Below the pieces are notes generated by a model. That model saw only the letters and a program-made list of their open reading frames with translations. It was not told the origin of the DNA and did not search any database. A program made the translations under genes and the position numbers. A stretch of DNA of 18,772 bases from a virus (Duplodnaviria > Heunggongvirae > Uroviricota > Caudoviricetes): the IMG/VR virus record IMGVR_UViG_2718218139_000014; one strand, written 5' to 3'. Every line of letters starts with the position of its first letter. Position 1 is the stretch's first letter. Of this stretch, positions 11,420 to 14,280 are shown in pieces.

Positions 11420-12277
11420 TCAGCTGATACTGATACCTGCTGTGGATTTTTTCATCACCACAACCAGCAGATCGCTGATACTTGCTGTGGGATACCAGTT
11501 ATTTACCAGCCATGCTGACACCGAAAACTCCAGCGTCATGTGACCGTGACCGGCAGGCATATCAATAACGCCACTGTAAATCAGCGTATTATCCAGCGCG
11601 GTACGGTTATAAATTTCAGCACCGTTTTTCCGCACTATCAGACGGCATGAGGAGTAAATATCAGTATGCTCTCTCTCATGTTTAGCGCCGCTGAATGCCA
11701 CCGCCGGAATAACAATTTGCCGGTCAAACGGCTGATCGTCATAAACCCTGACGGTAATGGTCCCTGATGGCCACCGCTCCGGTGCACGGGAATCCCGGGG
11801 GAAAGCTTTGCCCACTGTTTTAACGAGATCGCCTTCAATCTGGTTCGCGGACAGTTTTCCCAGAACCCGACAGTTCTCGTTAATCGTGACGTTGTTGAGC
11901 GTCCCGGAATTCGCATTCACGTTACCGCTGATATCAGCATTTCTTGCGGTCAGCCTGCCCTCCGGCGTCAGGGAAAACGTCGGGGGATTGCCGGACGAGG
12001 TGATACTCACCGCAAACAGCCGCTTCAGGAACACGTCGTTCATGAACAGCTGATTCCCCTGCGCCACAAATAACGGCGTGCTGTTGCCGTTCTCCGGATT
12101 TATCATCGCGATACGGTCAGCCAGCAGCAGTATGTTGCTCAGTGGCTGGCCATCAGTATCCTCAATCCCTGCACCAATCCCGGCCACATAGGGAATGCCG
12201 TCTTTCGTTTTTTGAACCTTCAGCATGTACAGCGCAGCCAGGTCATCATTTGTGTCCTTCTGCACGCGCTGTATCTG
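11420..12277 (-). pseudogene. C-terminal fragment (285 codons) of a lambdoid host-specificity/central tail fibre protein J, 5'-truncated by IS copy 2
   Basis: Reading frame runs out of the IS end into ...[43 protein letters not shown]; synteny J-lom-stf; the first 46 codons of the ORF-track frame (12278-12415) are IS sequence. Confidence 0.7.
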
Positions 12278-12320
12278 TGAGGTGTACTGGCAATAGCGGA
12301 CACTACCATTTGTTCTTTTT

Positions 12321-13139
12321 TTAAGCAGCCATCTGATGATATTTTTCCCTGAAGGCTGCCGGGGAGATATTCCCCAGACGAGAGTGACGACGCTGACGAT
12401 TGTAGAAAATCTCAATGTATTCCCGTATTACTGAGATGGCTTCATCCCGGTTATTAAAACGATAGTGGCTCAGGCTCTCATTTTTCAGCGTTCCCCAGAA
12501 GCTTTCCATCGGAGCGTTGTCGTAACAGTTACCTTTACGCGACATTGATGTTTTCAGACCAAACTGCTCCTGTATGACCCGGTAATCGTATGCGCAGTAC
12601 TGTGAACCTCGATCAGAGTGGTGGATTAGCCCGGCAGGTGGGCGCTGGCTCCTGAGCGCCATAAACAGGGCTTTACCTGTCAGCTCTTTTGTCATGCGCT
12701 CTCCCATGGCGTAGCCGACAATTTCGCACGTATAAACATCTTTGATGCCAGCGAGGTACAACCATCCCTCCTGTGTGGCAACATACGTCAGGTCCGCCAC
12801 CCAGACCTGATTTGGTGCTGTAGGAGCGAACGTCTGGTTCAGCAGATTTGGCGCAACTGGCAGATTGTGGTTCGAGTTCGTAGTCGCTCTGAACTTGCGT
12901 TTCTGCTTACAGCGTAGCCTTAGCTCCTTACGAAGACGTGCCAGTCGGTCACGACCAACGATGATGCCATTCTCTGCCAGCTCCGTCTGGAGCCGCCGGG
13001 TTCCATATGTTTCGCGAGTGCGGATATGTGCCACCTTAATCTCCAGTTTTAGCCGCTCATCACTTTGTTTTCTGTCTGAGGGTTCATGCTGTACCCAGTT
13101 GTAATAACCGCTCCTGGATACACCAAATACCTGACACAT
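12321..13139 (-). CDS. IS3-family transposase OrfB, 272 aa (copy 2)
   Basis: Translation identical to 5356-6174. Confidence 0.9.
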
Positions 13140-13174
13140 CGCTTCAATGGGAAATTGTTGTCGCCATTGTTCGA

Positions 13175-13477
13175 TTAACGCGTATTTTTCAGCGACTCCT
13201 GTGCAAAATACGCTGTTGCTTTTTTTAATATATCTCGCTCAAGGCGAGCTTCATTTAACGCCTTACGCAGTTGCAGAATTTCAGATTCCAGTTCAGCCAC
13301 CGTGCGGGAACCAGGAGTACCGAGCCCTTTTCTGGCGGCGGTAACCCATTGTCCTAAAGTGCCTTCAGGAAGAGATAATCGGGAAGCGCCTTCACTGATC
13401 GAAAGTTGATTTTCAAGAACCGTTCTGACAGCTTCGGCTTTGAACTCTTTAGAGTAACGTTGGGTTTTTCTGCTCAT
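13175..13477 (-). CDS. IS3-family transposase OrfA, 100 aa (copy 2)
   Basis: Translation identical to 5018-5320; A7 slippery run at 13220-13226. Confidence 0.9.
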
Positions 13478-13542
13478 TATTAGCTCCTTCTGATGCCATT
13501 CTATTTCAGGAAGGAGTGTCCGTTAAACTCAGGCTACCTCAT

Positions 13543-14280
13543 GGTGCCGATGCTGTGGCATTGCCTGAGAATTTCCGCATTCATGATCTGGAAAAATTTA
13601 ATTTAAATCGCTTCCGTTTCCGTGGTGCGCTTTCCACTGCCTGCATCGATGACTTTACCCGTTATTCTAAAGATCTTGCAGATGAAGGCACCCGCTGCTT
13701 TATCGATGCCGATAATATGCGAGCCGTCAGTGTGCTTAACCTGGGTACTATTGATGAACCAGGTCACGCAGATAACACCGCCACTCTCAAACTGAAAAAG
13801 ACAGCACCGTTTTCTGCTCTGTTGTCTGTTAATGGCGAGCGTAACTCCCAGAAGTCACTGGCAGAATGGATTGAAGACTGGGCCGACTACCTTGTGGGCT
13901 TTGATGCTAATGGTGACACCATTCAGGCAACCAAAGCGGCTGCGGCAGTCCGTAAAATCACGATTGAAGCAAACCAGACCGCTGATTTTGAAGATAATGA
14001 CTTCAGCGGCAAACGCTCCCTGATGGAATCTGTCGAAGCGAAGACCAAAGACATTATGCCAGTGGCATTTGAATTTAAATGCGTTCCGGTTGAAGGCCTG
14101 AAAGAACGTCCGTTTAAATTACGCCTCAGCATTATCACTGGCGATCGTCCTGTACTGGTTCTGCGCATTATTCAGCTGGAAGCAGTGCAGGAAGAAATGG
14201 CTAACGAATTTCGTGATCTGCTTGTTGAGAAATTCAAAGACAGCAAAGTAGAAACCTTTATTGGTACTTTCACCGCCTGA
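13543..14280 (+). pseudogene. YfdQ-like (DUF2303-type) prophage protein, 5'-truncated at the IS copy 2 boundary
   Basis: Frame begins at the IS end ([19 protein letters not shown]...) with no start codon or RBS of its own; the ORF-track Met at 13516 lies inside the IS; sits immediately upstream of a YfdR homologue. Confidence 0.55.

Follow-up and report, generated by a model that had tools for sequence, protein, structure and literature searches.

The window, by which the whole stretch of 18,772 nucleotides that was analysed is meant, comes from an E. coli of Shiga-toxin type and carries a lambdoid prophage whose integration site is the 5' end of dusA. The dusA gene lies on the minus strand (3024-4061) and the integrase gene starts at 4150 on the plus strand. 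The attR site is a duplicated 5' fragment of dusA, about 200 bp past the end of the window; it appears as a 107-bp repeat (L004, 15461-15567) that is 83% identical to dusA 3958-4064 and is annotated in relatives as a partial tRNA-dihydrouridine synthase. Integration of prophages and islands at the dusA 5' end through DusA-associated integrases is described by Farrugia et al. (2015, PMC4482086). As in the elements covered there, the integrase adjoins dusA upstream and is divergent from it, with a distal dusA 5' duplicate. Unlike those elements, the present one has its integrase split by an insertion sequence, and its morphogenesis, lysis and replication core is gone.

Two retained arms flank the point of interest. 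The left arm (6576-11391) is on the minus strand, with the exception of a DinI-like gene on the plus strand. It comprises three NleG-family effector genes (6985-8997), tail-fibre genes (about 9100-10694) and a Lom/Ail gene (10753-11391), assigned by Pfam families on the source contig and collinear with annotated relatives. The right arm (14346-18772) holds, on the plus strand, yfdR, a hypothetical gene, a SAM methyltransferase gene, an Ead/DUF551 gene, a 3'-5' exonuclease gene and a PrtN-like gene, while its last two genes, for a YafO-like toxin and a 179-aa ORF, are on the minus strand. RM9088 has a dusA prophage that is apparently intact and with which this arm is collinear; the arms of the window are likewise collinear with the dusA prophage of 2012C-4227.

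Two copies of an insertion sequence are present. Copy 1 (4954-6217, plus strand) divides the dusA-associated integrase into 4150-4953 and 6218-6514, both halves of which match Pfam Phage_integrase, and it is bordered by an ATC duplication at 4951-4953 and 6218-6220. Copy 2 (12278-13541, minus strand) is a complete element of 1264 bp, with its IRR end at 12278 and its IRL end at 13541. Reverse-complemented, it matches copy 1 exactly (100% identity), and the sequence-only reading had already called the two inverted; that reading had placed copy 2 at 12275-13544, which is the right site with a span that takes in 3 bp on each side of the element. Both genes of copy 2 are on the minus strand: orfA (13175-13477, 100 aa) matches Pfam HTH_Tnp_1, and orfB (12321-13139, 272 aa) matches HTH_21, rve, rve_2 and rve_3. 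A run of seven A residues at 13220-13226 is the likely site of a predicted -1 frameshift between the two genes; a programmed frameshift is annotated by RefSeq on IS600 copies that are 99.9% identical.

Copy 2 had been described as IS600-like. Over its whole length it shares 99.7-99.9% identity with RefSeq loci annotated as "IS3-like element IS600 family transposase". The ends of IS600 are imperfect terminal inverted repeats that start with TGAGGT and finish with ACCTCA, and both are complete in copy 2, with TGAGGTAGCCTGAGTTTAACGGACAC as IRL and ...GTGTCCGCTATTGCCAGTACACCTCA as the IRR end. By these matches the element is IS600 proper. IS600 (IS3 family, IS3 group), an element listed in ISfinder, was first described in Shigella sonnei. 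Copy 2 itself does not differ from it in any respect, and only the flanks are unusual. The lack of a target duplication, considered below, describes the insertion event rather than the element, and is thus no argument against this identification.

To the left, copy 2 abuts the 3' quarter of J, the tail-tip or host-specificity gene (J', 11420-12277, minus strand). J' consists of 285 codons and a stop, and keeps 858 of the 3474 nt (1157 codons) of an intact J; the 5' 2616 nt are gone. Its sequence agrees at every base (100% identity) with the 3' end of the J of 2003-3014 and of O26:H11 strains, which is intact at 3474 nt, and Pfam Phage_Tail_Tip and Ig_GpJ_C match the flank at 11423-12277 on the minus strand. 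To the right lies 'yfdQ (13542-14280, plus strand), of the DUF2303/YfdQ family, from which the first 86 of 825 nt are absent. DUF2303 matches it at 13543-14277 on the plus strand, over profile positions 26-269 of 269, and it is 99.5% identical to the intact yfdQ of two other loci (L007 and L003). The earlier description of a J gene without its 5' portion and a YfdQ-like gene without its start is therefore borne out, and the missing 5' parts of the two genes are found nowhere else in the window.

The junctions can be read to the base (a slash marks the boundary). The left one is GCGCTGTATCTG/TGAGGTGTACTGG in the window, where an intact J reads ...TATCTG/CTGTATGG; the right one is CAGGCTACCTCA/TGGTGCCGATGC, where an intact yfdQ reads ...AGTAATAT/TGGTGCCG. 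J' and 'yfdQ each match the intact genes through the final base before the IS. Reading frames run across both boundaries. On the right, 'yfdQ is read as a chimeric ORF of 254 aa with a GTG start at 13516, inside the IRL end of IS600; its product, NYT90654.1, is found on three contigs. On the left, the exact 331-aa IS::J' chimeric ORF had no match in the protein collection, and the protein look-up for J' used a 281-aa J' call in place of the 331-aa ORF.

The triplets next to copy 2 are CTG (12275-12277), the final native bases of J', and TGG (13542-13544), the opening native bases of 'yfdQ. In the orientation of the IS these are CCA and CAG, so that the 3-bp target duplication is lacking, as the sequence-only reading had observed in contrasting copy 2 with the ATC/ATC of copy 1. 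This absence is meaningful because a duplication is present in all four simple IS600 insertions examined, copy 1 and three further ones in other strains with perfect duplications of CCG, GTT and AAC, and because the chance of a 3-bp match is 1/64. For copy 1 the empty site exists in O157:H7 and in O165:H25 strain 2012C-4227, where its flanks overlap by exactly 3 bp and where, as in further O165:H25 relatives, the integrase is intact (1098 nt). Since relatives with a 100% identical chromosomal flank keep both an intact integrase and an intact J in their dusA prophage, copy 1 is, on this comparison, a simple insertion and a separate event from copy 2. It may have arisen by a local hop from copy 2, as the two are identical.

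For the comparison with related intact prophages at this locus, which had been proposed as a check, the nearest backbone is that of the O165:H25/CC119 lineage. With a chromosomal flank 100% identical to that of the window, O165:H25 strain 2012C-4227 and its relatives carry a dusA prophage in which the integrase and J are intact and the tail, head, lysis and Q modules are full; at this dusA site in 2012C-4227, the rest of J is followed by tail, head, terminase and lysis genes and Q. Between the two endpoints, 2014C-3655, RM9088 and 2003-3014 have Q, replication genes, cro/cI and yfdP. The genes which the earlier reading supposed to be removed, namely the rest of J and the tail, head, lysis and replication genes, are thus those that relatives carry between the two points. 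In 2003-3014 an intact J (3474 nt) and an intact yfdQ (825 nt) are found in one prophage, 37,016 bp apart, or about 35.7 kb once an IS600 in yfdP is left out of the count. The corresponding figure for CFSAN027346 is 35,662 bp, or about 34.3 kb without an IS. The endpoints are therefore 34-36 kb apart in these intact relatives. J (minus strand, left) and yfdQ (plus strand, right) have the same order and orientation in the window as in 2003-3014. Chromosomal synteny is kept (dnaB-qorA-pspG-dusA on the left, DUF2713-zur-yjbJ-dinF-lexA on the right), which indicates that the event was internal to the prophage.

From the sequence comparisons it is very probable that a lambdoid prophage at dusA lost about 34-36 kb from its interior and that the termini of copy 2 mark the two ends of this deletion. 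It would have removed the 5' three-quarters of J, the other tail genes, the head, terminase and lysis genes, Q, the genes for replication and immunity, yfdP and the initial 86 nt of yfdQ. The cargo arm, with integrase, DinI, three NleG, tail fibre and Lom, would thereby have been joined via the IS to the early-left arm that runs from yfdQ to attR. No alternative boundary with a matching repeat was found, and neither J nor yfdQ continues past the IS. The prophage has a mixed descent. For its stf-lom-J' segment, identity is complete (100%) with a prophage that occupies a different site in 2003-3014 and O26 strains, but falls to 88-98% with the dusA prophages of the closest chromosomal relatives. 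It is evidently a mosaic, and the nearest chromosomal relatives do not have the exact ancestor prophage; the deletion may, in consequence, have occurred elsewhere than in situ. The same arrangement is found in three assemblies, and so is not a one-off assembly error.

We infer that the deletion depended on IS600, since the IS termini coincide with its endpoints. The favoured mechanism, to which we give somewhat better than even weight, is homologous recombination between two direct copies of IS600, one in J (target CTG) and one in yfdQ (target TGG), which would leave a single hybrid copy. The parental junctions predicted by this model are CAGGCTACCTCA/CTGCTGTATGGTGG for IS600 in J at CTG, adjoining the rest of J, and ATCAGTAATATTGG/TGAGGTGTACTGG for the 5' end of yfdQ with TGG, adjoining IS600. 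E. coli offers well-documented precedents (PMC5009759) for deletion by recombination of direct IS copies, among them cases in which a newly inserted copy recombined with a resident one. The deletions in those mutation-accumulation lines resemble the window in leaving one complete IS without a duplication, between once-separate flanks in their original orientation. They used IS1, IS5 and IS2, while IS600 was there a single inactive K-12 copy. The host lineage of the window, in contrast, has tens of IS600 copies (23-33 in O165:H25/CC119, PMC10132054; 24-30 IS600-end matches per genome in the relatives), and here the second parental copy is deduced. Synthetic queries for the parental junctions, as well as the actual junctions, gave no contiguous match among 5,426 complete E. 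coli genomes, and in the same searches no third copy and no parental insertion came to light. Direct support is, as a result, lacking both for the two-copy model and for the sequence of events. Of the earlier proposal of IS-mediated loss, the deletion pattern holds; either of its two mechanisms, adjacent deletion or recombination with a third copy, may have produced it.

IS600 insertions are found in the yfdP-yfdQ-yfdR region of other strains as well. Four high-coverage matches, considered as shared IS-yfdQ junctions, were rejected as such, since their IS600 is at other positions (yfdP in 2003-3014, yfdQ +368 in 2014C-3655, yfdQ +476 in CFSAN027346 and yfdR in FWSEC0002) and the BLAST pieces are non-collinear. 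In FWSEC0002, an O145:NM strain, the IS600 is analogous to copy 2 in having no duplication and adjoins a 283-bp deletion in yfdR. The five IS600 copies in yfdP, yfdQ and yfdR share one orientation, in a search that joined pieces on one strand only and could not list opposite cases. No preference of IS600 for this region or for an orientation is claimed, as about five insertions are expected by chance on a rough estimate from about 9,500 IS600 places.

The alternatives differ in how far they depart from the favoured recombination. The nearest is a sub-variant that differs only in chemistry: a single IS600, probably one in yfdQ (at TGG), would have undergone an aberrant one-ended reaction that joined its IRR to the distant J, with loss of 35 kb and retention of the IS. 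Both termini of copy 2 are precise, and the independent insertions in yfdP-yfdQ-yfdR of four other strains make an ancestral yfdQ insertion plausible. The IS600 without duplication in FWSEC0002 (L012), next to a deletion of a mere 283 bp, is awkward for two copies. Transposase-dependent flank deletions by IS3-family elements have also been reported, the shortest of a few nt and the longest exceeding 40 kb (PMC9943667; PMC9397093). The deletions in those reports, however, go with IEE-dependent excision, and O165:H25 reportedly has no iee, while O145:H25 has a disrupted one (PMC5567499). The copy-out-paste-in pathway of the IS3 family is, by itself, not expected to yield adjacent deletions or to delete donor DNA (10.1101/2023.06.07.543989), a point that counts against this variant, and a simple yfdQ insertion at the site is absent from the 5,426 complete genomes. 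IS600 is a proven substrate of IEE (PMC9397093), and the deletions and excisions described for IS629 and other IS3-family elements in EHEC (Kusumoto et al. 2011, via PMC9943667 and PMC9397093) share with the window the family of the element, the STEC prophage setting and the loss of tens of kb of IS-flanking DNA. IEE events nevertheless drop the IS and leave microhomology scars, whereas the window keeps the IS with precise ends in a prophage whose closest lineage reportedly has no iee (PMC5567499). A one-ended reaction is less likely than recombination between two copies, though by no means improbable. Import of a J'-IS600-'yfdQ module, already deleted, by recombination from another lambdoid prophage would be improbable.

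Readings that deny a deletion made by the IS fare considerably worse. That IS600 copies in J and in yfdQ were collapsed in assembly, the loss of 35 kb being unreal, is very hard to maintain. IS repeats are a classic cause of collapsed assemblies, and the contigs of four draft assemblies stop 4-12 bp before the J junction, which taken alone fits either state. The source contig, however, has a length of 5.2 Mb, which we judge to be what long reads usually give; three contigs, moreover, bear the chimeric right-junction protein, two of them merged with the one shown, with mostly the same neighbouring proteins. Slightly less credible still is the reading that J'/'yfdQ was deleted independently of any IS and that IS600 inserted later at the junction, its duplication being lost or mutated. 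It is true that the same locus in O157:H7 has J' joined to 'yfdQ with no IS between them. On the other hand, more of both genes survives in the window than in O157:H7, by 145 bp for J and by 320 bp for yfdQ, and the window consequently cannot derive from that junction. A simple insertion would need CTG or TGG on both sides, which is not found; both flanks are native through the final base before the IS, on which ground simple insertion into an existing junction was rejected. To restore a duplication, two substitutions would have to be assumed in 3 bp, yet the IS copies are 100% identical to each other and the J flank to its reference. The least credible of all is inversion, or another rearrangement, between the two copies of the window, which lie 6 kb from each other in inverted orientation and have 100% identity. 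Copy 1 keeps its perfect ATC duplication, relatives with an empty site have its two flanks side by side, and the segment 6218-12277 has the same order, and the same orientation to dusA, as in O157:H7 and O165:H25 relatives. Empty-site comparisons and collinearity (L001, L005) exclude inversion of copies 1 and 2, in agreement with the earlier view that it was unlikely.

The IS-free scar of O157:H7 deserves mention in its own right. About 200 O157:H7 genomes have a dusA prophage remnant with this J'/'yfdQ scar, which is nested inside the endpoints of the window by the stated lengths on either side and has 5 bp of microhomology. A proposed identity of this locus with the Sakai prophage Sp17 was dropped, as the literature puts Sp17 at ECs3485-3488, a different locus. 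It is the O157:H7 scar, rather than the window, that looks like an IEE-type product. It could be imagined that the scar is the excision product of the IS600-bounded junction of the window, IEE, which O157:H7 carries, having excised the IS600, and that the defective element then spread by recombination among EHEC lineages. This remains a rather doubtful proposition.

A prophage deletion bounded by IS600 is in itself a known phenomenon, a case of ordinary IS-driven prophage decay. The window adds an example, resolved to the base, of a prophage immobilised by IS600 in a STEC lineage with tens of copies of this element: one copy splits the integrase and the other bounds the loss of all replication, packaging and lysis genes. 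The prophage is presumably immobile, because its integrase is split and its morphogenesis, lysis and replication core is lost. The three NleG type III effector genes, Lom and the tail-fibre genes survive the deletion. For annotation, J' and 'yfdQ should be treated as pseudogenes and the prophage as defective. The locus is a data point for IS-mediated prophage domestication, of little importance past bookkeeping. If the doubtful link to O157:H7 were true, the window would be an intermediate in a two-step domestication of an NleG-carrying prophage, in which an IS-bounded deletion of 35 kb came first and the IS was then lost by an IEE-type event that eroded the flanks. The nested scar of O157:H7 thus provides a small, testable link to IEE-type excision.

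The window runs from dnaB-qorA-pspG-dusA into a defective lambdoid prophage at the 5' end of dusA. Self-comparison reveals a single long repeat, with inverted arms at 4954-6228 and 12267-13541, and comparison with other insertions confines the element proper to 1264 bp of each arm. Copy 1 (4954-6217) has its genes on the plus strand and copy 2 (12278-13541) on the minus strand; the two copies are thus inverted, as the sequence-only reading had stated, and they are identical over all 1264 bp. The element consists of an HTH orfA and an rve/DDE orfB, with complete terminal repeats at both ends, and RefSeq loci annotated as IS600 match it over the full length at 99.7-99.9% identity. 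The earlier label "IS600-like" can thus be made more precise, to IS600 proper.

Copy 1 lies between two ATC triplets. The integrase gene is unbroken at this site in O157:H7 AC-3 and in O165:H25 2012C-4227, and the flanks mapped on these references overlap by exactly three bases, ATC. Therefore, copy 1 is a simple insertion that, as had been claimed, keeps its target duplication. At copy 2 the plus-strand flanks are CTG and TGG, which in IS orientation are the non-matching CCA and CAG that were noted earlier. This is informative, since independent IS600 insertions in other strains carry perfect 3-bp duplications in three out of three cases. These interrupt yfdP or yfdQ in other STEC prophages (L007 7002-8265, L002 9283-10546 and L003 9391-10654), in the orientation of copy 2, same-strand cases being the only ones the search could list. 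No target preference of IS600 can be claimed from them, because about five such insertions are expected by chance, on a rough estimate.

To the left of copy 2 lies J' (11420-12277, minus strand), the last 285 codons and stop of the tail-tip gene J, with the Pfam families Phage_Tail_Tip and Ig_GpJ_C. It matches the 3' end of the intact 3474-nt J of strain 2003-3014 and many O26:H11 genomes at 100% identity, and 2616 nt of that gene are absent from the window. To the right lies 'yfdQ (13542-14280, plus strand; DUF2303/YfdQ family, profile positions 26-269 of 269), without the first 86 of the 825 nt of the intact gene. The missing 5' portion of J and the missing start of the YfdQ-like gene are thereby borne out; both were sought in the rest of the window and not found there. 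At base level, intact J reads ...TATCTG up to the breakpoint and CTGTATGG beyond it, and intact yfdQ reads ...AGTAATAT up to its breakpoint and TGGTGCCG beyond it. Both flanks are therefore native right up to the IS, whose termini are themselves the breakpoints. An outward ORF across the IRR end, with 46 IS-encoded residues (MRFSTIVS...), is in frame with J' at copy 2 (11420-12415, minus strand) and with the C-terminal catalytic part of the integrase at copy 1 (6080-6514, plus strand), and 'yfdQ has an in-frame GTG within the IRL end (13516-14280, plus strand; NYT90654.1); all three are predicted chimeras.

The proposed comparison with related genomes carrying an intact prophage places both breakpoints within one prophage, in the order and orientation of the window, in 2003-3014 and CFSAN027346. 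Their spacing is 37.0 and 35.7 kb, or about 35.7 and 34.3 kb when resident IS elements are subtracted. The chromosomal flank (1-4140) is 100% identical in four complete genomes, 2012C-4227 among them, and the dusA prophage was inspected in three of these; each time both the integrase and J (3480 nt) are intact, with tail genes after J. The prophage of 2012C-4227 further contains head, terminase, lysis and Q modules. The right arm of the window is collinear with that (yfdP-yfdQ-yfdR ... PrtN-YafO-attR) of a dusA prophage in RM9088 that appears intact, and in 2014C-3655 a segment with Q, replication, cro/cI and yfdP lies upstream of yfdQ at the dusA locus. The earlier list of lost functions (the rest of J, tail, head, lysis and replication) is therefore correct. 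The source contig shows chromosomal synteny on both sides of the element, and the event is internal to the prophage. 2012C-4227 itself, one of the closest chromosomal relatives, has an IS3-family element beside an 802-bp IS600 remnant in place of the immunity, replication and yfdQ region (L006 28252-30310), which makes a second and independent IS-associated deletion in the same prophage.

An inversion between copies 1 and 2, already considered unlikely in the sequence-only reading, is excluded by the duplication at copy 1, the empty sites and the collinearity with relatives. Insertion of IS600 into an older junction is likewise excluded, as CTG and TGG each occur on one side only and the flanks are both native. 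Collapse of two IS600 copies in assembly is unlikely in view of the 5.2-Mb source contig (E. coli assembly GCA_003015325.1) and three concordant assemblies. The chimeric ORF NYT90654.1, which runs from the IRL end into 'yfdQ, occurs on three contigs whose neighbouring genes are mostly common to all three. Short contigs in four draft assemblies begin 4-12 bp short of the J breakpoint, which is compatible with the junction and no proof of it. Neither the left nor the right junction of the window occurs in any of the 5,426 complete E. coli genomes of the collection.

A deletion junction between tail and early modules is thus supported, with 34-36 kb absent, and the precise IS ends at both breakpoints, the lack of a duplication and the preserved flank orientation argue for an IS-dependent deletion. 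Adjacent deletion and recombination with a further IS copy, the two routes suggested earlier, are both classical and both fit, and one can be no more than favoured. In the route that we consider somewhat the more probable, one IS600 would have inserted in J at CTG and another in yfdQ at TGG, in direct orientation, and homologous recombination between them would have deleted the intervening DNA. Deletions by recombination between IS pairs, including a resident and a newly inserted copy, are documented in E. coli (PMC5009759). This route is favoured because no loss of donor DNA is expected from copy-out-paste-in transposition (10.1101/2023.06.07.543989), because IS600 is present in tens of copies in the closest lineage (23-33 in CC119 genomes, PMC10132054; more than 50 in O145:H25, PMC5567499; 24-30 IS600-end matches in the relatives), and because iee, a promoter of deletions next to IS elements, is reportedly missing from O165 and disrupted in O145:H25 (PMC5567499). 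Against it counts that neither of the parental junctions it predicts was found among the 5,426 complete genomes.

The less probable but still substantial alternative needs just one IS600 copy, from which a one-ended, transposase-dependent reaction would have deleted the adjacent DNA. It finds a parallel in O145:NM FWSEC0002, where an IS600 in yfdR with unmatched flanks (GTG/GAG) lies beside a 283-bp deletion, a distance awkward for the two-copy model (complete IS600 at L012 4024-5287; deletion equivalent to window 14565-14847). It is improbable, though conceivable, that the J'-IS600-'yfdQ module arose in a different prophage and came in by recombination. In favour of this, a 2003-3014 prophage integrated elsewhere matches 9036-12277 at 100% and the first 400 bp of 'yfdQ at 99.5% identity, versus only 88-98% for these parts in the dusA prophages of the closest chromosomal relatives. 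The tail fibre-Lom-J' part (9036-12277) is also found at 100% identity in O26:H11 strains.

O157:H7 contains a dusA remnant of like kind, in which J' is joined directly to 'yfdQ without an IS, at a 5-bp microhomology, CAGAA (L001 13803-13860 in AC-3, equivalent to window about 12133 / 13862). This junction, short of the window's by 145 bp of J and 320 bp of yfdQ, is nested inside the IS600-bounded one. It occurs in 202-204 of the 5,426 complete genomes, among which no third J'/'yfdQ junction type was found. The chance of endpoints so close on both sides is about 1e-4 to 2e-3, a rough estimate that assumes independent and uniform endpoints. IEE-dependent excision is reported to remove an IS together with flanking DNA at microhomology, IEE accepts IS600 as a substrate, and iee is present in O157 (PMC9943667; PMC9397093); the O157:H7 junction looks like a scar of IEE-type excision. 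O157 and the window are almost 100% identical in the left arm (6218-8600), as compared with 98.6% in the core flank, which suggests a shared history of the element. Next to the junction, identity is 86-89% in J' and 97.5-98.8% in 'yfdQ, which speaks against direct descent. A common origin of the scar and the window junction is a hypothesis of low probability.

The prophage is a mosaic: its DinI-NleG part (6218-8600) is almost 100% identical to the dusA prophages of 2012C-4227 as well as O157:H7, and 9036-12277 to a prophage at another site. Three tandem NleG-family genes (DUF1076, U-box type III effector; 6985-8997, minus strand) are retained beside the split integrase, the third (8410-8997) being the most variable among strains, with 86.5% identity to O157 over 8618-8817. 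A 21-nt direct-repeat family (10064-10207) lies within the tail-fibre gene 9375-10694, whose product has long Ala/Ser-rich and collagen-like Gly-X-Y stretches, and is probably ordinary tail-fibre repeat structure. Near the attR end lies a 144-aa YafO-toxin-family ORF (17782-18216, minus strand; Pfam YafO_toxin in the source contig), with an uncharacterised 179-aa ORF after it; the YafO-family ORF is common to the RM9088 dusA prophage and absent from those of 2012C-4227 and O157.

The original observation is thus confirmed and its interpretation supported. The element is an ordinary IS600, and the IS-bounded decay of an effector-carrying prophage is well known in STEC.
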